Source: Escherichia phage vB_EcoM_LNA1
Length of the DNA: 64,000 nucleotides
Strand: one strand, 5' to 3'
Sequence record: MZ311863.1
Part shown: positions 2,926 through 48,640 of the stretch, one piece after another
Layout: the number at the start of each line of letters is the position of its first letter
Numbering within the stretch: position 1 is the stretch's first letter
The notes under the pieces: generated by a model
Seen by the model: the letters and a program-made list of their open reading frames with translations, nothing else
Told to the model about the DNA's origin: nothing
Databases searched by the model: none
Position numbers and translations under genes: made by a program

Positions 2926-4026
2926 TTATTCATAATCCCTAATAATTAGCCCTACAGGGAACTGTAAAGACCCCTTACGAGTCATCTTCTGGAACTGAAC
3001 CGTTAAAGGTTTCCCGATAAACTCTTCAGGGTGTTCAGCAAGATACTGTTTCTTCTCGTGAGTAGTCTTCCATGAGACATCTACAAAGACGTTAGGAAGA
3101 GTCTCTACAACGAACTTGCCATGACCACGTTTATCGGTCTTTACACCAGTCACTTTAAACTCTTCAGTGTGCATCTTCTTGTGCTTAATCAAGAAGTATG
3201 AACGGTGACAACACTCATAGAAGGAGTCTTCAGAGATTGAACGGTACATTGCACCTTCAAACTTAGCTTCAACCCACTTATCATGAGCTTCATCAAACTC
3301 TTCCCAAGAATTTACACGGATAGTCTGTACAGGAACCACTCTACAGGTATCCCCAAGCTCAACAATAGGTGAACTATCAATAACTTCACGACGCTCAGGC
3401 CAAGATTTTGAATTGTCACAGATATCATACCAGTAGAATTTAAGAAGGTGACGGTCTGGATTGTCAGCATTCTTAATCATAGAGACAATATCTTCTAAGT
3501 CCCAACCATGAGCATAAATCTCACCATCAAAGTCTTCAACTTGTGGATGTAATTTAAGCAACAAAAGTAAGTCTGGGATTAGTTCTGCTGGAACGTTGTA
3601 AACAGTATTCTCACGAGAATAAGCCGTGAAACTAACTGAATCATCATCTCTTGAAATCCTACAACGGACACCATCAAGTTTCGGTTGAGCATCAGCAGGG
3701 AACTTCAGATACTTTGCATGGCTAACCTTTGCAGCATCGTGAGCAAGCTGTACACCTACCTTCTCAGTATTCTGTGCAGACTCTTTTGTGTAAGCATAAC
3801 CTTTGCGGTCAACTTGCTTTTTATACTTAGCAGCAACTTCAAAGAGAGCTTGCTGTTCAGCGTTACGCTCATTCTTTTTACCGATGTTTTTAGGCTCTGC
3901 TGTGTACTCTTCAAACATCATCTTGCCATTTTCTTTACCGTAGGTTGTAATAACTTTGTCACCTACAGCAACGCATGACCAAACGTTGAAGGAACCATCT
4001 TTATTTTGTTTGTACAGAATTGTCAT
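2926..4026 (-). CDS. ATP-dependent DNA ligase
   Basis: 366 aa; KLDGVR adenylation motif (motif I KxDG) in PKLDGVRCRI. Confidence 0.75.
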   Translation of the reverse strand: MTILYKQNKDGSFNVWSCVAVGDKVITTYGKENGKMMFEEYTAEPKNIGKKNERNAEQQALFEVAAKYKKQVDRKGYAYTKESAQNTEKVGVQLAHDAAKVSHAKYLKFPADAQPKLDGVRCRISRDDDSVSFTAYSRENTVYNVPAELIPDLLLLLKLHPQVEDFDGEIYAHGWDLEDIVSMIKNADNPDRHLLKFYWYDICDNSKSWPERREVIDSSPIVELGDTCRVVPVQTIRVNSWEEFDEAHDKWVEAKFEGAMYRSISEDSFYECCHRSYFLIKHKKMHTEEFKVTGVKTDKRGHGKFVVETLPNVFVDVSWKTTHEKKQYLAEHPEEFIGKPLTVQFQKMTRKGSLQFPVGLIIRDYE

Positions 4027-4497: not shown

Positions 4498-4629
4498 GAT
4501 AGTCTACCTCTCTGTATGTTTTTAAATAGTGAGTGATGAGTTCTGGTAATTCACTACGTTTAACGTTTGAACGAAGAAGTGTCCAGTCAAAACCTTTACC
4601 AACCCTTCCCCAGAGACTGTACAGTTTCT

Positions 4630-40162: not shown

Positions 40163-40948
40163 ATGGGTATTGTAAAAATCATCAAAGGGGATATCTTTGA
40201 CGCCTTTGATAAAGGTAAATTTGATATCATCGGTCATGGTTGCAACTGTATGAATTTCATGGGTGCAGGTATTGCAGCAACTATTTCTAAGCGTTATCCA
40301 AAAGTGTATGATACTGACACAGAAGTTTACCTGTTTGCAGGTGGCATCCGTCACAAACCCTGTGAAAATTTACTAGGTAATTTCTCTGTAGCACGTTTAA
40401 AACAAGGTCGTATAGCTAACCTTTACACCCAACTTCATACTGGTAAAGATGCCCGATACAGTGCTTTAGAGTCATCTTTGAAACAGCTTAACAGATACTG
40501 TGAAGTTAACCAGTTGAAGAAAGTTGGCCTGCCTATGATTGGTGCAGGTATCGGTGGACTTGACCCTCAAGCTGTCACAGTTATCATCAATCAGGTGATG
40601 AAGAGCGTAGATGTTTACCTGTATGTCTACGAGGCAGAGATGTACAACAAGTTACACTCAGGTTGGAAGAACTACTGTGAACCAGAATACTTTGCGGGTG
40701 TAGTAGTGTTCACAGACAACACAGTTACCCTCTTCAGACGAAGAAAAGGTAAGATACATCAAAGTAACCCTCCGGTTGAAAAGATGTCTCTAAGTAACGC
40801 TCTAGTTACCCACCTGTCGAAGAGCAATCACAGGATTGCAGTAACATTTGGCAGCGATGCAGATGCTTACATCTATGCAAGAACTGATGAGGCTATCGAG
40901 ACGGTTTTCTCTTCACCGGAAGTTACCTTCTTAGACGCAAAGAACTAA
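40163..40948 (+). CDS. macro-domain (ADP-ribose-binding/processing) protein
   Basis: 261 aa; IIGHGCNCMNFMGAGIAATI resembles macro-domain N-x(5)-GGG-[VI]-x(2)-AI region. Confidence 0.5.
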   Translation: MGIVKIIKGDIFDAFDKGKFDIIGHGCNCMNFMGAGIAATISKRYPKVYDTDTEVYLFAGGIRHKPCENLLGNFSVARLKQGRIANLYTQLHTGKDARYSALESSLKQLNRYCEVNQLKKVGLPMIGAGIGGLDPQAVTVIINQVMKSVDVYLYVYEAEMYNKLHSGWKNYCEPEYFAGVVVFTDNTVTLFRRRKGKIHQSNPPVEKMSLSNALVTHLSKSNHRIAVTFGSDADAYIYARTDEAIETVFSSPEVTFLDAKN

Positions 40949-41020
40949 GAAAACTCTGTAGAATATTCACAATAGACTAAGCCTTTCTTATCTGGTAAAT
41001 TTTTCAGGTAAGGAGGGCTT

Positions 41021-41218
41021 TTTCATTTCAGGATTGTGCAGGTAGAGTTCTGGACAGAAATCTGTAGAGAGAATTTTGAACTCCAAAGAGAAAATTCATT
41101 TTCAAATTGTGCAGGTAATCTCCAAAGAGCTTTTTCATTTTCAAAACGTGCAGAGAAAAATCAGGTCGGGCAAGAAAAATCATTTTAGAATTGTGCAGGT
41201 AGGTGGGTGCAGGTGGGG
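41021..41218. repeat. iteron-like direct repeats
   Basis: four copies of about 25 bp CATTTTCA-N3-5-TTGTGCAGGTA (41021-41046, 41091-41119, 41130-41155, 41176-41203) plus gtgggtgcaggtgggg, followed by AT-rich stretch. Confidence 0.55.
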
Positions 41219-41377
41219 ATGTCGCCATTTCTCACAAGGCTACCACATCCGAAAAGAAAAGTCAACAGAAAAATTTGTAGCGGATTGAAAAATAATTCTT
41301 GATTTGTGTTCTGTTTTGTGGTATTCGCGCGCACCCGTTTCATTGCATTTTTGCCAAAAATATTTTTAAAATTTTTC

Positions 41378-41406
41378 TTGACTATTCGAACGGGGTTATC
41401 TAGTAT
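41378..41406 (+). promoter_or_regulatory. sigma70-like promoter
   Basis: TTGACT-17 nt-TAGTAT upstream of first small-gene cassette. Confidence 0.45.
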
Positions 41407-41411
41407 TTGCA

Positions 41412-41469
41412 TCAACGGGGAGGAAATGACTTCCCCACTAAATAAACCCTTAAACTAGGAGATTCTAAA
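41412..41469 (+). promoter_or_regulatory. leader cassette type A (copy 1)
   Basis: TCAACGGGGAGG(A/G)AATGAC(C)TTCCCCACTAAATAAA(g/c)cCTTAAACTAGGAGATTC(a/t)AAA-ATG; hairpin directly upstream of SD. Confidence 0.5.
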
Positions 41470-41658
41470 ATGGCATCAAGAAAAATTAAAGTTGGCGATG
41501 AGGTTAACATCAAGCACGAATATTCTTACAAAATGCTAACTATCCGCTCTTATAAGGTTTATCAGGTGGAAGCTATCCACGAAGATAACACTTTTTCCTT
41601 AAAAGGTTATAGCGAACGTTTCCCTGCTGAACTCTTTGAGAAATGGAGCGCGAAATAA
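41470..41658 (+). CDS. small hypothetical protein (cassette gene)
   Basis: 62 aa; preceded by type A leader. Confidence 0.4.
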   Translation: MASRKIKVGDEVNIKHEYSYKMLTIRSYKVYQVEAIHEDNTFSLKGYSERFPAELFEKWSAK

Positions 41659-41864
41659 TGCTATACGGTCGTGAATTGATGGTTACAACTAACGTTAACA
41701 CAAATGTAAAACGTTTTTACATGCGAATTTGTGGCGTATGGTCTAGAATATCAGAAGCTGACTACTGCAACTATGTAGAAACGGCAATCAACTCTGATTG
41801 TTATCTTACAAGGAATACTAAAAAATTTACGAGACAGACAGCGGTTTACTATTACGATATCTGA
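41658..41864 (+). CDS. small hypothetical protein
   Basis: start placed at internal ATG after ggag RBS. Confidence 0.3.
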   Translation: MLYGRELMVTTNVNTNVKRFYMRICGVWSRISEADYCNYVETAINSDCYLTRNTKKFTRQTAVYYYDI

Positions 41865-41867
41865 TAA

Positions 41868-41955
41868 AGTAATTTACAAGGGGCTTAAAAGTTGATATCT
41901 TAAGCCCCAGATAAAGAGTTTTACCACATCAACCCTTAAACTAGGAGATTCAAAA
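41868..41955 (+). promoter_or_regulatory. leader cassette type B (copy 1, divergent)
   Basis: ggggcttaaaagttgatatcttaagcccc hairpin then AGATAAAG...CTTAAACTAGGAGATTCAAAAATG. Confidence 0.45.
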
Positions 41956-42336
41956 ATGGCTTATCGTGCACCTAAATTCATCAATAAAGACAATTTCCGC
42001 AATGCACTGGAAAAATCACTTGATGAGAATTTTACAGGTCGGGTTATTGTTGTACACGCATTCAATTTTAAGTATGATATTAACGGGAATAAAATCAACC
42101 ATTACACGGCAACCATGTTAGATGGTGCACTTTCAAGTGAAAAAGCCATTCTTCATGCACTTGCAGGACGTGGTAAAAACCTGATAAAATGCAATAAGAG
42201 ACGTTATCAGGGCGGCGCATATGGTTACGATGATGCTGTTTATCATCTTGAGAATATGGGCTATTCAGTGGAAAAATCTGGAGTATCTCAAATAATCGGC
42301 AGTGATGGTTATGTGACAATCTTCAAAATTAACTAA
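41956..42336 (+). CDS. small hypothetical protein (cassette gene)
   Basis: 126 aa. Confidence 0.4.
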   Translation: MAYRAPKFINKDNFRNALEKSLDENFTGRVIVVHAFNFKYDINGNKINHYTATMLDGALSSEKAILHALAGRGKNLIKCNKRRYQGGAYGYDDAVYHLENMGYSVEKSGVSQIIGSDGYVTIFKIN

Positions 42337-42338
42337 TA

Positions 42339-42424
42339 AATTACTTTACAGGGGGCTTATAGTTCGATAAAATAAGCCCCAGATAAAGTGATTTACCACT
42401 AAATCCTAAACTGGAGAATCTAAA
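42339..42424 (+). promoter_or_regulatory. leader cassette type B (copy 2)
   Basis: TACTTTACAGGGGGCTTATAGTTCGATAAAaTAAGCCCCAGATAAAGTgaTTTACCACTAAATCCTAAACTGGAGAaTCTAAAATG. Confidence 0.5.
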
Positions 42425-42721
42425 ATGAAATTATCAAATAAAGTTAGGGAAAATCTAAGCAAGTTACTCAACAAAATCGATTTTATTGAGACCTCAAGAA
42501 ATACTCATGAGGTTATGGAATGGTTACACGGCAAGATAAAAGGCCGTCGTGTGGTGATTTGTTTATGGAACAGTTGCAGGGAGTATAAAAAACCTGTATT
42601 ACAAATTAATATTTATGATAATACTTTTAAAAGCCCTGTAAAGTCGAAAAGCGATTTATTAGAATCCTATGAGATAACTGTAAGTGGCAAGGTATCACGT
42701 AAAGAGGAAACACCATGTTAA
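42425..42721 (+). CDS. small hypothetical protein (cassette gene)
   Basis: 98 aa. Confidence 0.4.
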   Translation: MKLSNKVRENLSKLLNKIDFIETSRNTHEVMEWLHGKIKGRRVVICLWNSCREYKKPVLQINIYDNTFKSPVKSKSDLLESYEITVSGKVSRKEETPC

Positions 42722-43047
42722 TAACTGGCGTCACTGCAATTATAGCCATTATAGCACTTTATAAGGCATATAAAGCCTATAATCTGGCAAGTAAGGCAAT
42801 CACGCAACAGGTCAATAATAACCTTGTAGAGAGCTTTCTAGGGCGTTTAAGTGATGAGCAAATAAAGCGGCTAGAGATGAGCTTCAGATATAAAGCGAAA
42901 ACCTATCAGATAAGTGACATCTTCAAAGATGATTTTCAGTTAGTCGATGATTATAACGCTCTGATAAATGCTTTAAATATCAGTGACTTAAAAGACTACT
43001 ACGCTGTAATTGTTCAAGAATTGAGCAAACGAAAAAATTCCTCTTGA
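42715..43047 (+). CDS. small hypothetical protein with N-terminal TM helix
   Basis: 110 aa; LITGVTAIIAIIALY hydrophobic segment. Confidence 0.35.
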   Translation: MLITGVTAIIAIIALYKAYKAYNLASKAITQQVNNNLVESFLGRLSDEQIKRLEMSFRYKAKTYQISDIFKDDFQLVDDYNALINALNISDLKDYYAVIVQELSKRKNSS

Positions 43048-43077
43048 TTTTGATTTTAAAAACAAGTAAATTACTAA

Positions 43078-43137
43078 TCAACGGGGAGGGAATGACCTTC
43101 CCCACTAAGTAAAACCCTTAAACTAGGAGATTCAAAA
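43078..43137 (+). promoter_or_regulatory. leader cassette type A (copy 2)
   Basis: near-identical to copy 1. Confidence 0.5.
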
Positions 43138-43410
43138 ATGTACACTACTAACAACGGTCGCACCTTAAACGTAACCCTGCGCCACTACGTGAACGGTGTA
43201 ATGCACTTCGAGGATTTACAAGCTGAACAACATATCTTGGATTGGCAACTTGCAGGATTCCAAAAAACTGTTACAGGTTACGGGAAAAAGATTCCAACTA
43301 GTTGGAAAGTATACTACGAAGGACGTTTGCGCAGAATTTATCAGGATGTTTACAGTAATAGCGCATCAAGTTACATCATGGTAAAAGGTAAAAAGCTGCA
43401 TTTAGTATAA
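43138..43410 (+). CDS. small hypothetical protein (cassette gene)
   Basis: 90 aa. Confidence 0.4.
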   Translation: MYTTNNGRTLNVTLRHYVNGVMHFEDLQAEQHILDWQLAGFQKTVTGYGKKIPTSWKVYYEGRLRRIYQDVYSNSASSYIMVKGKKLHLV

Positions 43411-43496
43411 AGTACTTTACAGGGGGCTTATAGTTCGATAAAGTAAGCCCCAGATAAAGTACTTTACCACTAAATCCTAAATTGGAGATTCAAAAA
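43410..43496 (+). promoter_or_regulatory. leader cassette type B (copy 3)
   Basis: near-identical to 42339-42424. Confidence 0.5.
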
Positions 43497-43901
43497 ATGG
43501 TTATTAATAACCGTGAATTATTAATTTTAAAAGCACGTTTGACCGTTAACCGGATTAATGTTATTACGTCATCAGCACCAGACGAGACACTGCACAACAT
43601 TATTGGGAAGATTCAAAGTGTTATCTTAGACGTTGAAAACGTAAAAAACTCACTGATTGACGTTGCAGCAGGTATCACGCTAGACGGTGCACAATACGAA
43701 ATGGCTGACATGTTGGGCAAATCTAAGGTAATGAATAGGGAGTTAGATTTGAAAATGTTTAGATTTGCTGTTAAAGTATGGCTATCCGTCGAGTATGATG
43801 CTAATTATGCAATCGCTGACTTTTTCGCAACATGGTTACAACGTAATTTAACAAATCACGATTTTCGTAGTATCTGCGATGCAATTTATACAGAACTTTA
43901 A
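43497..43901 (+). CDS. small hypothetical protein (cassette gene)
   Basis: start at ATG (MVINN...) that follows the conserved leader. Confidence 0.4.
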   Translation: MVINNRELLILKARLTVNRINVITSSAPDETLHNIIGKIQSVILDVENVKNSLIDVAAGITLDGAQYEMADMLGKSKVMNRELDLKMFRFAVKVWLSVEYDANYAIADFFATWLQRNLTNHDFRSICDAIYTEL

Positions 43902-43944
43902 AAATTTTTGTTGACACTGGTTTCTAGATAGATTAAATTACACC

Positions 43945-43999
43945 TCAACGGGAGGGATGACCTCCCCACTAAATAAAGTCCTAAACTGGAGATTCTAAA
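43945..43999 (+). promoter_or_regulatory. leader cassette type A (copy 3)
   Basis: TCAACGGGAGGGATGACCTCCCCACTAAATAAAGTCCTAAACTGGAGATTCTAAAATG. Confidence 0.5.
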
Positions 44000-44203
44000 A
44001 TGGCTATTATTAACGGTTTAAACATTGAAACTACTCACATCAAAGACATCAAAGTTGGCGATATAGTCCTTTTTCACGGCGTAGAGAAAACTGTTACTGC
44101 AAAAGATATCAAAGAGGATTCATTCATGGGCCGGACCCTCTTCGGTGAGTCCTATTGCTTAGGTTACCTTGCAGTTTTAAAAGTTGTCAAAGGTAATCGT
44201 TAA
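44000..44203 (+). CDS. small hypothetical protein (cassette gene)
   Basis: 67 aa. Confidence 0.4.
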   Translation: MAIINGLNIETTHIKDIKVGDIVLFHGVEKTVTAKDIKEDSFMGRTLFGESYCLGYLAVLKVVKGNR

Positions 44204-44288
44204 AGTACTTTACAGGGGGCTTATAGTTCGATAAAGTAAGCCCCAGATAAAGTACTTTACCACTAAATCCTAAACTGGAGATTCTAAA
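44204..44288 (+). promoter_or_regulatory. leader cassette type B (copy 4)
   Basis: identical hairpin GGGGGCTTATAGTTCGATAAAGTAAGCCCC. Confidence 0.5.
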
Positions 44289-44831
44289 ATGAAATGCTTT
44301 CACGGTACTACTCAAGAAAACTTCCTCAATCTGATTAATAACGGCGATAAGCCATCAGGTGCATGGAATTGTTCGGATATGGACGGCAATTTTTACGTAT
44401 ATCCAGAAAATAAAATCTATGGCGACGATGAGCAAGAAATAATCTCTGAAGGTATCCAGCAAGCGTTAGGCAATGCCGCTATCACCGCAGCTTTCCAGAT
44501 GAAAACTCAAAACATTGTTATCTTGGAACTTGATATTCCAGAAGATGACCTGAATGATGATTATTCTTGTGATAATATGGCTGGCGTAGCAAGTTTTACA
44601 GAATACTTCGATTTGAATTGGATTAAAAAGGTTTACGTAACCGAGTTTAACGCTATGTATTCGCCTTTTTGTCTTCCTTCACTGGATAACCCAAATATGA
44701 ATTATCTTGATGAGACATTAGAGCTACTTGCTAAAAGTGTTCAACAGTCGGACAGTACTCAGGTTTTTTGTGACATCATGGAGACACTGGCAGGAAACAT
44801 CACAGAAGAGGATTTAAAGAGTTTTTTATAA
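44289..44831 (+). CDS. hypothetical protein (cassette gene)
   Basis: 180 aa. Confidence 0.4.
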   Translation: MKCFHGTTQENFLNLINNGDKPSGAWNCSDMDGNFYVYPENKIYGDDEQEIISEGIQQALGNAAITAAFQMKTQNIVILELDIPEDDLNDDYSCDNMAGVASFTEYFDLNWIKKVYVTEFNAMYSPFCLPSLDNPNMNYLDETLELLAKSVQQSDSTQVFCDIMETLAGNITEEDLKSFL

Positions 44832-44863
44832 AAACCTATACAATCACCTTATAAACACTATTC

Positions 44864-44883
44864 AGCCCCTTGTAGGGGCTTTT
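44864..44883 (+). terminator. putative intrinsic terminator
   Basis: agccccttgtaggggct hairpin plus ttt. Confidence 0.4.
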
Positions 44884-44897
44884 AAGGAGCTTAAATC

Positions 44898-45131
44898 ATG
44901 CTTACAACCGTTTACCTCATCCTTTCTATTTGTAATGGCCATTCATGCGACTTTAAAGGGCTTGAGGAGTTTACAGGAAGTAAAGAAAATGCTATTCAGG
45001 TTTGCCAGATAGCAAGGCAAGACTATCCCGCAAGTGATGATATACAATGTTACTTTAAAACAGAAGATGACGACGGAATCTATTTCGATAGTGTTGATGG
45101 CCAATATGAAATTATCATAGAAAAAGACTAG
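44898..45131 (+). CDS. small hypothetical protein
   Basis: 77 aa. Confidence 0.35.
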   Translation: MLTTVYLILSICNGHSCDFKGLEEFTGSKENAIQVCQIARQDYPASDDIQCYFKTEDDDGIYFDSVDGQYEIIIEKD

Positions 45132-45162
45132 ACAAGCCTGATAAAAGTCTGTAAATTGTCAA

Positions 45163-45222
45163 TCAACGGGGAGGGAATGACCTTCCCCACTAAATAAAGT
45201 CCTTAAACTAGGAGATTCAAAA
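45163..45222 (+). promoter_or_regulatory. leader cassette type A (copy 4)
   Basis: near-identical to copy 2. Confidence 0.5.
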
Positions 45223-45564
45223 ATGGCTTATGTAACCGTAATTACCGATAAACCGGATTCATCTTGGTCAACTCAAGTAAGTGATAAGATGACACCTATG
45301 CAGTGCCTAAAATACTTTGAGCAATGGAATAAAGGCGAGGAAACCAGCCCCTTTCAAGTAATGCAGATTATTCATGCAGACAACGAAGGGATTAAAACGG
45401 TTTTAAATAGTGAGCACTATACAACCCGATTTGAAACGAGATGTAAAACGATGAAGTTATTACGTGAGTCCGGTTATACCCATATTGCCGCACTAATCTG
45501 GGATGACCTGCTAAAAAATCAGCGTATCAGCTACGTAAAGCCTGAAAAAATATTCATCAGTTAA
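45223..45564 (+). CDS. small hypothetical protein (cassette gene)
   Basis: 113 aa. Confidence 0.4.
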   Translation: MAYVTVITDKPDSSWSTQVSDKMTPMQCLKYFEQWNKGEETSPFQVMQIIHADNEGIKTVLNSEHYTTRFETRCKTMKLLRESGYTHIAALIWDDLLKNQRISYVKPEKIFIS

Positions 45565-45727
45565 TCAATAACTTACAAAAAACTTTCAAAAAAGTATTGA
45601 CAATACCCCTTGACATTGGTAATGTTGTTCGAGGGGGTTTATCTAAAAGGGATTAACTTAAAAGATTCTTTATAGATAAACTGAAAAAATTGCTTGCAAT
45701 CAGATATCAAAACAAGTAAATTACTAA

Positions 45728-45786
45728 TCAACGGGGAGGGAATGACCTTCCCCACTAAATAAAGTCCTTAAACTAGGAGATTCATA
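45728..45786 (+). promoter_or_regulatory. leader cassette type A (copy 5)
   Basis: near-identical to copy 2. Confidence 0.5.
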
Positions 45787-46317
45787 ATGAACAAGTTCAA
45801 AGCTATCAACTTCATTCGTTCAAATGCTGTAATGTCTAAACCTGTTAAAGATACCTACGAATTTCGCTGCAATGGTGTACACTTCGCAACAATCACCAAA
45901 TCAGAAAACGGGGCTTATTACGTCCATCGTCGTAATGTTGCAACCGTTGTAGTCTCTCATTTTATGCAAGCCGTAGCGAAACTATTACCGCTATTCTTAG
46001 AAATTTACTTGGATGAGTGTAAAAACGTTCACAATCACGTTAAAAACCTTTTAAATAGTTATAAAATGGCTTATGAGCATTCAATCAAGTTTTTAAACAA
46101 GTTCTATAAAGCCCCTGTAAATACTGTTTCAATGGCTTACAGTGTAAGCGGTGAGTTGGTCAGTCTCTTCGAAGTGGAAGGAATCGAACTGCATGACTTG
46201 CGCCCTAGCGGTTACGCTAAGACACTGGGAGAAGGTTTATCTTTCAATATCAAAAACTTAGAAAAAACTTTGAGAGATATTGGAAAAGATATTGACGAGA
46301 CAATCAAAAACCTGTAA
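45787..46317 (+). CDS. hypothetical protein (cassette gene)
   Basis: 176 aa. Confidence 0.4.
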   Translation: MNKFKAINFIRSNAVMSKPVKDTYEFRCNGVHFATITKSENGAYYVHRRNVATVVVSHFMQAVAKLLPLFLEIYLDECKNVHNHVKNLLNSYKMAYEHSIKFLNKFYKAPVNTVSMAYSVSGELVSLFEVEGIELHDLRPSGYAKTLGEGLSFNIKNLEKTLRDIGKDIDETIKNL

Positions 46318-46325
46318 ATTGTCAA

Positions 46326-46380
46326 TCAACGGGGGATGACCTCCCCCACTCAATAAAATCCTTAAACTAGGGGCATCAAG
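46326..46380 (+). promoter_or_regulatory. leader cassette type A (copy 6, divergent)
   Basis: TCAACGGGGGATGACCTCCCCCACTCAATAAAATCCTTAAACTAGGGGCATCAAG-ATG. Confidence 0.45.
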
Positions 46381-46644
46381 ATGGAAAACGTAGAATTAAC
46401 CAAACTTTTACAAATTGCAACCGACAAAGAAGATGTAGCATTATTCCACCGTATCGAAAGCGATTTGTTCAATGGTGAAATCATCAAAGAATCTTACGAA
46501 GTTGTCGGATTCAAAGATGGTAAAGCGTTTGGCTTTTTTGACCTCGACAAAGGCAACGCGGTTGCAAAATATGATGTTTTATCTTGTGAGATTCTTACAA
46601 AATACAACGAAAAAAGGCTTGCAACATACGCCAACATGCAGTAA
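46381..46644 (+). CDS. small hypothetical protein (cassette gene)
   Basis: 87 aa. Confidence 0.4.
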   Translation: MENVELTKLLQIATDKEDVALFHRIESDLFNGEIIKESYEVVGFKDGKAFGFFDLDKGNAVAKYDVLSCEILTKYNEKRLATYANMQ

Positions 46645-46652
46645 ATTACTAA

Positions 46653-46709
46653 TCAACGGGAGGTAATGACCTCCCACTACATAAAACCCTTAAACTAGGA
46701 GATTCAAAA
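46653..46709 (+). promoter_or_regulatory. leader cassette type A (copy 7)
   Basis: TCAACGGGAGGTAATGACCTCCCACTACATAAAACCCTTAAACTAGGAGATTCAAAAATG. Confidence 0.5.
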
Positions 46710-46958
46710 ATGGCAACTATCCGCGCAACTGTTAACGCTTATGGCTGTTATACTCTGGACGTTAAATTTGATATTGGTGGGACTGATGAATGTTTTTCCT
46801 TAGTGAAGACAGTTATCAAGCAAGTTATTCCAGACTATAACCCTACTGATGACTTCTGGAAAGATGCCGTAAAAGAGGCCATAAACGATGAGCATCACTA
46901 TCACTATTGGGGCGATTTAATTGTTTCCCTGTACTACAGCAAACAAGGTTACAACTAA
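46710..46958 (+). CDS. small hypothetical protein (cassette gene)
   Basis: 82 aa. Confidence 0.4.
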   Translation: MATIRATVNAYGCYTLDVKFDIGGTDECFSLVKTVIKQVIPDYNPTDDFWKDAVKEAINDEHHYHYWGDLIVSLYYSKQGYN

Positions 46959-46968
46959 TCGACGCAAC

Positions 46969-46990
46969 GGGGCTAAATAGCCCCAGATAC
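46969..46990 (+). terminator. putative intrinsic terminator
   Basis: ggggctaaatagcccc hairpin after last cassette gene. Confidence 0.4.
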
Positions 46991-48640
46991 CTTCAAAGCT
47001 CCTTTTCATAGGGGCTTTTTTACGTCTTATCGAATCCCTATACAATCCCTTTCCCTTTCCTTTCCAGAATCTCTCCCACTGATTCGATAGAATCTATCTC
47101 AGACCTTAAAAAGCAATAACTCTGTAGCTTATCCTATAGCCTTTTATCAAATCAACTTAAATATAAGCCCATAACCCGAAAGGGAAGGGCAACCATTTAA
47201 ACGCCCTATAAAGCCCTATAACGGCCTTTTTAACCTAACTTAAGGGATTGCATTACCTCACCCTTAAAAGCCCTTTATAAAGCTTCCCAGAGCCTTAAAA
47301 GAATCTTATAAGGGTGTAAGCTTTATCATCTCGTTAGTATTCTTGTGAATAACTAAAAAGGGCTTGTCAGTGTCTTAAAAGTATGTTATAGGGGCTATAA
47401 AGTTACTTCAAAGTTACGTGATAGATAGCTTAAAAGTTACGTAAATGCTAGCCCCCTTAACATTTTCTTAACAATTTCTTAACAAACCCTACATAGTTAT
47501 GCTTGTTAGGGACTTGTTAGCAACTTGTTAAATCTCTGTTACAACCATGTAAAAGCCTTGTAAGAACCTTTGACATAGCCTTTAAAGCTCCTGTAAAGCC
47601 CTATAAAGGGCTATCCATACAGTTGAGGGGTAAATACTAGGGAGAGCCTGAAAAGAGCCTATAAAGGGCTATAGAGAGCTTTTAAAAGGGCTATTTAGAG
47701 AGTCACTAAGAGGGAAAGGGAACGATAAGAAAAGAATAGTGACCATGTTAATAGCCTGTTAAAAAGATTAAACACTTGTTAGGAACTTGTTAATTATCTT
47801 AACAAAATAACCCTTTAAAATTAACTTGTTAACTCTTGTTAGTCATCTGTTAAGACTCTGTAAAGACCATATAGCAACTGTTAAGGAACTGTTACCCTCT
47901 TGTTAAAACTGTTAAAAATCTGTTAATACCTCTGAAGAGATGTTAAAAAGATGTGAGAACTGTTGAGAGATTGTTAATGATATTTTAAAATTTTGCAAAG
48001 GGGGTGTTAAGGAGCTGTTAAGGGCTACCAAGCAGATATACATCTTCTACAGATATTTTTCAGTTCCTTCAAAAACCCTAAAAAATGACTTGATAGTCCT
48101 ATTTTATAAAAATTTTAAAAATCTGAATAATTACCCAGACAGTCTTTTAAAAATACAGGCATAAACAGGCTTATAAGATACCTTGTTAGTACCGTGTTAG
48201 ACCTTGTGAGATAAGGTCTGTAAAGATATTCCTGTTAAGTTTGTTAAAACAGTCTATATAGAGGCTTAGTAATACCTAGTGAACACCTATAGAGGGTAAC
48301 ATAGCTTACCTAGAGATTAAGAGGTGTATAGGAGCTTCTAAGAGGGTGTAGAGGTATGGTTAAGGTGATTGTATAGGTTGTTAAGAAGGCTTGTTAGAAG
48401 AGTGTTTAGAAGGACTATACAGAGGGGCTATTAAGACCACTAGATAGATACTAAGATGCTATATAGTACTATATAACTATATAGAGAGTAAGATTAAGAA
48501 GGTTGTTAAGAAGGATAGATATTTTATTCACATATGATGGTGACCCAGAGGTTGGGACAACCGATAAAATTTTATAAAAAATATAAATTTCGTAAATTTT
48601 ACTCAATAAAAAGCCCCCAATTAAGGAGGCTCTTAAGATA
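46985..48640. repeat. ORF-free region dense in short direct repeats
   Basis: no ORF of 60 aa or more on either strand across about 1.65 kb; more than 30 copies of YTGTTAR (cttgttag, ctgttaa, ttgttaa), plus recurring CTTAAAAG and TATAAAGGGCTAT words. Confidence 0.6.

Follow-up and report, generated by a model that had tools for sequence, protein, structure and literature searches.

The closest described counterparts of the elements reported here are promoter early stem-loops (PeSLs), mobile promoter/stem-loop cassettes so far described only in T4-like phages, namely RB49/phi1, T4/PST and KVP40/nt-1 (Arbiol et al. 2010, PMC2839356; Comeau et al. 2014, PMC4122927). We analyzed a window of 64,000 nucleotides from Escherichia phage vB_EcoM_LNA1 (sequence record MZ311863.1), a Felixounavirus, in which 14 small genes form an array interspersed with 11 intergenic cassettes of two types, A and B. 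A first-pass annotation of the window had likened the leaders of these genes to the T4 elements, and at the level of sequence the PeSL definition is matched feature by feature. The array is probably the hyperplastic early-gene region of a Felix O1-like myovirus, equipped with two standardized PeSL-type cassettes that would also serve as recombination sites.

As in PeSLs, the cassettes are intergenic repeats of about 100 bp that reach from stop codon to ATG and contain an A/T-rich tract, a sigma-70-type early promoter with a 17-bp spacer, a G-run/C-run stem-loop, a Shine-Dalgarno sequence (SD) and the start codon. Both placements of the stem-loop are known as PeSL subclasses, over the -10 hexamer (as in type B) or downstream of it (as in type A). 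Clustering in a hyperplastic region of ORFans, cassette-bounded indels between relatives, and chimeric and degraded half-cassettes are also common to both. There are differences as well. The carriers are Ounavirinae (Felixounavirus, Suspvirus and Mooglevirus) rather than T4-like phages, and the likeness is one of architecture. Only two types exist here, highly standardized and with an identical 3′ leader module, and they occupy one terminator-closed array in contrast to the several hyperplastic regions of T4-like phages. Type B is a long two-part hairpin with its predicted transcription start exactly at the base. Finally, promoter activity, terminator activity and mini-circles were shown experimentally for the RB49/phi1 PeSLs, whereas the present cassettes are described from sequence. 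Judged by architecture, the cassettes are the same kind of element as PeSLs in a new lineage, and we do not file them as homologues.

Parts of both cassettes were already on record. The Felix O1 genome paper (Whichard et al. 2010, PMC3185647) lists a 57-bp direct repeat, CTTTACATGGGGCTTAAAAGTCTGTAAAGTAAGCCCCAGATAAAGAGCTTTACCACT, which is the type B core, and a 39-bp direct repeat, TTGACACTGGTTTTTAGATAGATTAAATTACACATCAAC, which is the promoter half of type A and equal to that of cassette A3. The repeats were left uninterpreted there and are absent from its promoter list, no promoters having been found for the region, and temporal regulation was stated to be unknown; the present analysis fills this gap. 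The paper on phage wV8 mentions neither promoters nor repeats, and a literature search found no paper describing the cassettes or linking PeSLs to Felix O1-like phages.

The array is the counterpart of Felix O1 genes 14-23, which are flanked by terminators t13 and t23, and lies between intrinsic terminators at 40979 and 46997 (Table 1). It consists of 14 ORFs (open reading frames) between 41470 and 46958, all on the plus strand and coding for 62-180 amino acids (aa), and of 11 intergenic cassettes of about 95 bp. The first-pass annotation had reported about 14 small genes, seven leaders of one type and four of another, and these counts were borne out: type A precedes the genes at 41470, 43138, 44000, 45223, 45787, 46381 and 46710, and type B those at 41956, 42425, 43497 and 44289. 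The leader repeats are real, with 3-7 matches compared with 0-0.04 expected in dinucleotide-preserving shuffles. Other parts of that description had to be amended. Its span, 41412-46958, is too short, as the first promoter lies at 41378 and the array continues through a half-cassette hairpin (46969-46984) to the terminator at 46997-47021. Its leader of 55-60 nt is indeed conserved, but the repeat also includes a -35/-10 promoter pair that had not been counted. The two types, said to alternate, do so only in the middle of the array, the order from 5′ to 3′ being A B B A B A B A A A A. Lastly, a cassette launches 11 of the 14 genes and not each of them; the exceptions are g2 (41658) and g5 (42715), which overlap the preceding gene and are probably translationally coupled to it, and g10 (44898), which has a small hairpin of its own and AAGGAG.

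Table 1. The cassette array and its boundaries in the window, by position. All products of g1 to g14 are of unknown function; kcal/mol and z values refer to the RNA fold.
Feature	Position	Strand	Description
Intrinsic terminator (Felix O1 t13)	40979-41028	+	closes upstream operon; left array boundary; from terminator scan
Cassette A1	41376-41469	+	-35 TTGACT 41378-41383; -10 TAGTAT 41401-41406; hairpin 41417-41423/41430-41436, then shared leader and SD
g1	41470-41658	+	62 aa; phrog_15633
g2	41658-41864	+	ATG overlaps g1 stop codon; phrog_5293
Cassette B1 (variant)	41861-41955	+	-35 TTTACA 41873-41878; -10 TATCTT 41896-41901 preceded by TG; inner stem 41880-41888/41900-41908; 3′ leader of A type
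g3	41956-42336	+	126 aa
Cassette B2	42331-42424	+	-35 42345-42350; -10 TAAAAT 42368-42373; two-part hairpin 42337-42348/42352-42360/42372-42380/42384-42395; -24.7 kcal/mol, z -6.3
g4	42425-42721	+	98 aa
g5	42715-43047	+	110 aa; overlaps g4
Cassette A2	43042-43137	+	-35 TTGATT 43044-43049; -10 TAAATT 43067-43072; predicted +1 A43080; hairpin 43083-43090/43096-43103
g6	43138-43410	+	90 aa
Cassette B3	43405-43496	+	-35 43416-43421; -10 TAAAGT 43439-43444; predicted +1 A43452; two-part hairpin 43408-43419/43423-43431/43443-43451/43455-43466; -27.2 kcal/mol, z -7.1
g7	43497-43901	+	134 aa
Cassette A3	43909-43999	+	-35 TTGACA 43911-43916; -10 TAAATT 43934-43939; hairpin 43950-43955/43961-43966
g8	44000-44203	+	67 aa
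Cassette B4	44195-44288	+	-35 44209-44214; -10 TAAAGT 44232-44237; two-part hairpin 44201-44212/44216-44224/44236-44244/44248-44259; -27.3 kcal/mol, z -7.2
g9	44289-44831	+	180 aa
Short hairpin between g9 and g10	44864-44890	+	GCCCCTTGTAGGGGC, then TTTT and AAGGAG
g10	44898-45131	+	77 aa
Cassette A4	45128-45222	+	-35 TAGACA 45129-45134; -10 TAAATT 45152-45157 preceded by TG; predicted +1 A45165; hairpin 45168-45175/45181-45188
g11	45223-45564	+	113 aa
Third element, single copy	45596-45645	+	TTGACA, 17 bp, TAATGT; stem CCCCTTGA/TCGAGGGG brackets -10
Cassette A5	45692-45786	+	-35 TTGCAA 45694-45699; -10 TAAATT 45717-45722; hairpin 45733-45740/45746-45753
g12	45787-46317	+	176 aa
Cassette A6 (variant)	46291-46380	+	-35 TTGACG 46292-46297; -10 TAAATT 46315-46320; hairpin 46331-46336/46342-46347; SD region AGGGGCATCAAGATG
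g13	46381-46644	+	87 aa
Cassette A7	46617-46709	+	-35 TTGCAA 46619-46624; -10 TAAATT 46642-46647; hairpin 46658-46664/46669-46675
g14	46710-46958	+	82 aa
Promoterless half-cassette	46965-46989	+	CAACGGGGC-TAAATA-GCCCCAGATA; stem 46969-46973/46980-46984
Intrinsic terminator (Felix O1 t23)	46997-47021	+	stem about 46997-47016, then T-run; right array boundary

Type A cassettes begin with an A/T-rich tract (AAAAATT or AAATTTTT), followed by the -35 hexamer (TTGACA, TTGCAA, TTGACG, TTGATT, TTGACT or TAGACA), exactly 17 bp, the -10 hexamer (mostly TAAATT), 7-8 nt ending in ATCAAC, and a G/C hairpin of 6-8 bp such as the G-run/C-run stem GGGGAGGG/CCTTCCCC. The hairpin starts 11 nt past the -10 hexamer, at about +4, and is followed by ACTAAATAAAG and then CCT(T)AAACT(A)GGAGATTCAAAAATG. 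The leader folds into this 5′ hairpin and a weak stem of 3-4 bp in which (U)CCU pairs with AGG(A) of the SD. In type B the tract upstream of the -35 hexamer begins ATAAAGTA, and the layout is TAAAGTACTTTACA-GGGGGCTTA-(loop with the -10 hexamer)-TAAGCCCC-AGATAAAGTACTTTACC, after which comes the same 3′ module as in type A. Its promoter reads TTTACA, 17 bp, then TAAAGT, TAAAAT or TATCTT; the stem GGGGCTTA/TAAGCCCC flanks the -10 hexamer, with the inner arms in the promoter spacer and at -7 to -1. Three of the four type B RNAs in the window form 12 bp, a 3x3 internal loop, 9 bp and an 11-nt terminal loop (about 21 bp in all) at -24.7 to -27.3 kcal/mol with z from -6.3 to -7.2, and the fourth fold is weaker (-14.2 kcal/mol). 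All copies of either type have GGAG(A), 8 nt and ATG. The hairpin had been thought to abut the SD; in fact it ends about 21 nt (type A) or about 30-35 nt (type B) upstream of GGAG. A search of 40900-48600 against Rfam at a permissive threshold returned three chance-level microRNA/small RNA hits of at most 26.1 bits, compared with gathering scores of 47-110.

The cassettes are fitted tightly against the genes that precede them, as the upstream stop codons fall within the -35 hexamer, the -10 hexamer or the outer stem of the next cassette. The g5 stop TGA is inside the -35 hexamer TTGATT of A2 (43045-43049) and the g10 stop TAG inside the -35 hexamer TAGACA of A4 (45129-45134), while the -10 hexamer TAAATT of A6 (46315-46320) opens with the g12 stop TAA and that of A7 (46642-46647) contains the g13 stop TAA. 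The last codons of these four genes therefore double as promoter sequence.

The homologous region was fetched from 13 other phages, giving together with the window a sample of 14 genomes in three genera: nine Felixounavirus, ESCO45 (filed only under Ounavirinae), two Suspvirus and two Mooglevirus. These genomes hold 143 cassette copies, 75 of type A and 68 of type B. The cassettes are hardly a by-product of gene duplication. The 14 proteins of the window were assigned to 14 different PHROG families, every one of unknown function; a Pfam scan gave no domain above the curated cut-off, and blastp among the 14, with ORF starts trimmed to the cassette ATG (first-ATG calls carry leader-encoded N-terminal extensions in g6, g8 and g12), detected no cross-similarity. 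Thus the earlier statement that the coding sequences are unrelated held, and tandem gene duplication is contradicted. It is extremely improbable that the leaders are alike only through recent tandem duplication of whole genes, or as transposons resembling miniature inverted-repeat transposable elements: the repeats are direct and closely spaced and type B has long inverted ends, as such origins would have it, but the coding regions share nothing, all 143 copies keep the same orientation and an exact stop-codon-to-ATG register, no target-site duplication is visible in the aligned copies, and cassettes are kept at orthologous slots across the three genera.

Across the copies, the promoter hexamers and the distance between them stay constant. 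Type A has the 17-bp spacer and a -10 hexamer of the form TAnnnT in 75/75 copies and a -35 hexamer of the form TTGnnn in 64/75, and its spacer sequences belong to several unrelated lineages. In type B, TTTACA is present in 68/68 copies, 64 copies have a 17-bp and four an 18-bp spacer, TG precedes the -10 hexamer in 33, and the -10 slot keeps its T, A and T without exception inside an otherwise variable hairpin loop. Such fixed hexamers and spacing next to variable spacers and loops are the signature of sigma-70 promoters. Felix O1 encodes no RNA polymerase of its own (PMC3185647), which fits this reading.

In the hairpins, pairing is kept while the sequence varies. The first paired base of type A lies 11 nt after the -10 hexamer in 62/75 copies, and about 10 distinct stem sequences, with differing loops, all fold at this same position; besides GGGGAGGG/CCTTCCCC they include GGGAGG/CCTCCC, GGGGGA/TCCCCC, GGGGAGG/CTTCCCC, GGGGC/GCCCC, GGGC/GCCC and GGGGAAG/CTTCCCC. 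A covariance-model alignment of 57 type A copies left 95.5% of helix cells paired. The case for a conserved type A structure is, as we read the alignments, carried more by the roughly 10 stem variants at a fixed distance than by the covariance model. Two side observations concern this hairpin. In NBSal004 (fetched segment 5245-5358) its 5′ arm before g8 is expanded to 14 G (GGGGGGGGGGGGGGCGATAACCTCCCC), which could be due to replication slippage or a sequencing error. A leader peptide starting at an ATG in the type A loop was considered and rejected, as by eye its frame and stop vary between copies through 1-nt indels, and the loop ATG is also missing from the Mooglevirus and Suspvirus variants.

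In type B the inner helix is 97.5% paired and the outer helix 91%, the minimum-energy fold has 19-24 pairs in 64/68 copies, and shifting the 3′ partners by one column lowers pairing from 93.7% to 53-58%. Compensatory changes are present in both helices. In the inner one, GGGG/CCCC is replaced by GGTG/CACC (GC to UA) in 4/4 ESCO45 copies and CTTA/TAAG by TTAT/ATAG in many Suspvirus and Mooglevirus copies, and one pair is split between C-G (37) and U-G (27); the outer one has a pair that reads G-C in 50 copies but U-A in 10, as well as a pair with U-G in 63. These wobbles are U-G on the plus strand and would be A-C mismatches on the other, which argues that the selected structure is a sense RNA and not a symmetric DNA site.

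The first-pass annotation had suggested an RNase site or a repressor operator, either of which is a possibility, and the strand asymmetry favors RNA structure over a DNA operator. In the operator reading, a dimeric repressor of phage or host origin would bind the inverted repeats and turn the early promoters off, as an early-to-middle switch. Palindromic sequences cover the core promoter, with TAAAGTACTTTA and GGGGCTTA...TAAGCCCC overlapping the -35 and -10 hexamers and the predicted transcription start; AGCCCCAGATAAAGAG is invariant across the three genera beyond what pairing needs, and relatives annotate a small 'putative transcriptional regulator'. Nevertheless, pairing accepts U-G and not A-C (27 and 63 cells at two pairs), as fits sense-strand RNA, and the covarying positions 19 and 70 are in different palindromes 47 bp apart, as an RNA helix predicts. 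Type A, for its part, keeps its structure despite altered sequences in both stem and loop. The strand-asymmetric G-U pairs together with the long-range covariation led us to downgrade the operator reading of the TAAAGTACTTTA palindromes, and we now consider it very unlikely.

In the model that we favor, each cassette would act in DNA as a host sigma-70 promoter, and each gene or coupled pair would be its own early transcription unit. We infer promoter activity, transcription starts, early timing, and the stabilizing and processing roles of the hairpins from the features described above. For type A, the predicted transcription start is the A of ATCAAC, which lies 7-8 nt past the -10 hexamer and 3-4 nt before the hairpin, so that the mRNA would begin with a 5′-terminal stem-loop, most likely protecting it from 5′-end-dependent decay (RppH/RNase E). 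The E. coli ompA mRNA and the T7 gene 10 (phi10) leader have 5′-terminal stabilizing stem-loops. Type A resembles them in its G/C hairpin predicted 3-4 nt from the 5′ end, its A/U-rich spacer and its strong SD, a layout shared with the T7 phi10 leader, and differs in that its 5′ end is a predicted one and the same hairpin would also occur internally in read-through RNA. The type A hairpin would most likely be a stabilizing stem-loop of this kind. Type B transcripts should start at the A directly after the inner stem (e.g., A43452), and consequently the two-part hairpin would form only in read-through RNA from the upstream gene. Substantial read-through is to be expected, since no T-run stands behind any hairpin, and in that RNA the type B hairpin most likely functions as a 3′ barrier, an attenuator or a processing site. 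Through the shared 3′ module, all 11 genes receive the same SD, 8-nt A/U spacer and AUG.

The last of these roles can also be made the chief one. In phage T7, RNase III processing sites lie between early genes. Type B is similar in being an intergenic hairpin of about 60 nt between small early genes, with lower and upper stems split by an internal loop, and it differs in embedding a promoter and in having a lower-stem mismatch in most copies. The main function of type B could thus be RNase III-type processing of a long polycistronic early RNA, the promoter being secondary or absent; a cut in the 3x3 loop would leave a protective hairpin upstream and a downstream 5′ end close to the predicted promoter start. 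The two-part shape (z down to -7.2), its retention in three genera with 19-24 pairs in nearly all copies, the covariation in both helices with sense-strand-specific G-U pairs, and the lack of an intrinsic terminator inside the array, from which read-through RNA is expected, are all in keeping with it. Processing alone leaves unexplained the invariant TTTACA, the 17-bp spacing, the T/A/T of the -10 slot and the frequent TG, and an A-A or G-A mismatch occupies one outer-helix position in 59/66 copies. As a rival of the favored model or a complement to it, this reading, which is based on shape, is possible but doubtful. A combination of the two is quite unlikely in our estimation: type B may be doubly coded, as a sigma-70 promoter in about 60 bp of DNA and as a two-part RNase III-type hairpin in read-through RNA, both yielding a near-identical 5′ end. 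De novo transcription and cutting of a polycistron would then supply every gene with one and the same leader. If so, type B together with type A and the shared leader would make the array an integrase-free, recombination-driven gene-capture system resembling an integron, and any ORF with a cassette on either side could at once be expressed and be exchanged throughout Ounavirinae.

Whether the hairpins terminate transcription was judged from what follows them. The first-pass annotation spoke of a promoter/terminator/translation-initiation cassette; the promoter and leader parts are well supported by sequence and genome comparison, with invariant hexamers and 17-bp spacing, and the terminator part is unsupported. 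None of the 11 hairpins precedes a T-run, type A being followed by ACTAAAT and type B by AGATAAAG, and the terminator scan found no intrinsic terminator inside the array. Over 40500-47500 it returned a single terminator-like site, at 40979 and outside the cassettes, which the Felix O1 genome paper (PMC3185647) gives as t13 with the same sequence. In the original PeSL view, the hairpins would be terminators or attenuators insulating each gene, which would then be expressed only from its own promoter. An RB49 G-run/C-run PeSL stem-loop cut expression of a downstream reporter as strongly as rrnB T1, and the GenBank record of phage ASO1A labels type A hairpins 'rho-independent terminator' (a WebGeSTer prediction). 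Against this view stand the missing T-runs and the position of the type A hairpin between its own promoter and gene, where efficient termination would silence the gene; genuine T-run terminators sit instead at both array ends. We regard insulation by termination as rather unlikely. In the ASO1A record (MZ726791.1; fetched segment 1893-1962, 2944-3013, 4541-4571) a 'promoter' is followed 10 nt later by the 'rho-independent terminator', directly upstream of genes. Each such pair corresponds to a type A cassette, whose 5′ leader hairpin was probably mistaken for a terminator.

Several points weigh against the model of promoter-bearing PeSL-type cassettes. A consensus promoter scan of the region gave no excess, with 26 promoter-like sites compared with 20.9 expected, and for this reason positional conservation across copies was used as evidence instead. 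Two-sided covariation in type A is sparse among close relatives (1/8 pairs), because G/C homopolymer stems change mostly by symmetric shortening, and the 500-shuffle control applied to type A covariance cannot be taken as a probability where sequences are related. Nor are the copies independent: gene conversion spreads variants, so the compensatory changes represent few evolutionary events. RB49 PeSL stem-loops act as terminators, and with no U-tract here an attenuator role is uncertain. No Felixounavirus transcriptome was found in the literature, and promoter use, starts and timing are read from the nucleotide sequence only. In end-point reverse transcription-PCR (RT-PCR) of Felix O1, array ORFs 14, 17, 19 and 23 peak at 25 min. 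The same experiment has array ORFs 16, 20, 21 and 22 maximal at 5 min; its table also puts several structural genes at 5 min and is weak evidence either way, and the RT-PCR timing does not correlate with cassette type.

The second role assigned to the cassettes in our model, that of recombination sites, is documented by differences between the genomes. As the cassettes are direct repeats of about 95 bp at every gene boundary, they also act as sites of homologous recombination, by which cassette-plus-gene units are deleted, duplicated, replaced or moved and the cassettes themselves homogenized. Comparison of gene content in related phages had been proposed as a check on the shuffling of accessory genes, and it supports such shuffling, as the 14 genomes differ from one another in whole units of cassette plus gene and deletion junctions carry chimeric cassettes. 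Coverage of the array region by relatives ranges from 96% down to under 10%. Phage LF82P5 is without g3-g8, and LF110P4 retains only g3, g9, g10, g13 and g14. Extra units (n1, n2, n3, n4, n9 and n17) are found in other phages, nearly all with a cassette of their own, n4 in NBSal004 being without one. An unrelated gene occupies the g8 slot in Suspvirus and Mooglevirus, Michonne has a g1 homologue (40% identity) in a different slot, and g3 and g11 stand behind type A in one phage and behind type B in another.

Four junctions were aligned at the nucleotide level and all proved to be chimeric cassettes. The LF110P4 cassette before g13 has a 5′ half like A4 of the window and a 3′ half like A6, the Felix O1 cassette before g11 combines the A3 promoter with the A4 leader, typing phage 11 has the A1 promoter and hairpin joined to g3 via the shared 3′ module, and in LF82P5 a mosaic type B cassette links g2 to g9. 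In RPN213, which is without g13-g14, a type A promoter is fused directly to the half-cassette that closes the array. Tandem and empty cassettes were also seen. In Michonne (fetched segment 113-992) a type B cassette and the n2 gene are duplicated in tandem, with the ATG of one cassette fused straight to the CTTTACA of the next, and KPS64 (fetched segment 5605-5836) has two tandem type A cassettes with no gene between; such arrangements may reflect either genuine recombination or faulty assembly at repeats. Identity of the type B core is 85% between orthologous slots of Felixounavirus genomes and 81% between different slots within one genome. Cassette variants are distributed mosaically, and ESCO45 has homogenized all four type B copies (GGTG/CACC). 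Taken from the aligned sequences, these are traces that frequent homologous recombination and gene conversion between cassettes have left, and they were observed directly, as were the anatomy, the conservation pattern, the pairing statistics and the restriction to one array. On this comparative evidence the cassettes are demonstrably crossover points at which related phages gain, lose and swap genes.

The cassettes are widespread in relatives of the phage and confined to one place in the genome. The 5.8-kb array stretch is about 90% identical to those of JN01, REP8-10 and HY02 and is matched by 255 phage records, with hosts nearly all Escherichia, Salmonella, Shigella or Citrobacter; about 250 phage records have cassettes, nearly all from these same hosts of Felix O1-type phages. 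The matching records include one named Staphylococcus phage and one named Campylobacter phage, which are probably mislabelled or contaminated. All window copies lie within a single 5.6-kb array: a profile search of the 64-kb window gave no copy outside it, and the complete 88-kb JN01 genome has none outside the homologous array.

PeSL-type cassettes would thus occur in a second, unrelated group of virulent myoviruses, which suggests a general and probably convergent way for virulent phages to keep fast-evolving early accessory genes expressed and exchangeable. Felix O1-like phages are widely used for typing, biocontrol and therapy of Salmonella and E. coli. The finding singles out at least 14 ORFan families whose members, each with a predicted promoter of its own, are probably early genes for host takeover or anti-defence, and would explain both the strong variability of the region among about 250 sequenced relatives and the frequent assembly breaks there. 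The cassettes also offer phage engineering a natural, compact and standardized means of expression in many sequence variants.

The single-copy third element within the array (45596-45645) is without the standard leader and has no ORF after it in the window. The region around it (45565-45700) is 84-96% identical in the 13 relatives carrying it, and in Suspvirus and Mooglevirus a 46-aa ORF lies just downstream. The element could drive a small RNA or a tiny gene.

Directly upstream of the array, 40163-40948 encodes a macro-domain protein (Pfam PF01661, E 5e-7), labelled by relatives as phosphatase, macro domain protein or O-acetyl-ADP-ribose deacetylase. Between t13 and the first cassette promoter there are 357 nt of non-coding DNA (41021-41377), 79-98% identical in 11 relatives and with only a partial 71% match within the fetched segment of SUSP2. 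It includes four copies of a 29-34-nt repeat, (A)GAGCTTTTTCATTTTCAAATTGTGCAGG, and the stretch could contain regulator binding sites ahead of the array. At the other end, the half-cassette and right terminator (46965-47021) fold at -23.5 kcal/mol with z -3.8. Beyond them, 47030-48500 is a stretch of about 1.5 kb without a convincing ORF, rich in short repeats of the CTTGTTA and CCCTATAAAG types, where converging plus- and minus-strand gene blocks meet. The GenBank records of several relatives start or stop in or near this region, and that of mistaenkt annotates a repeat_region there; it may be a physical genome end, a packaging region or an origin.

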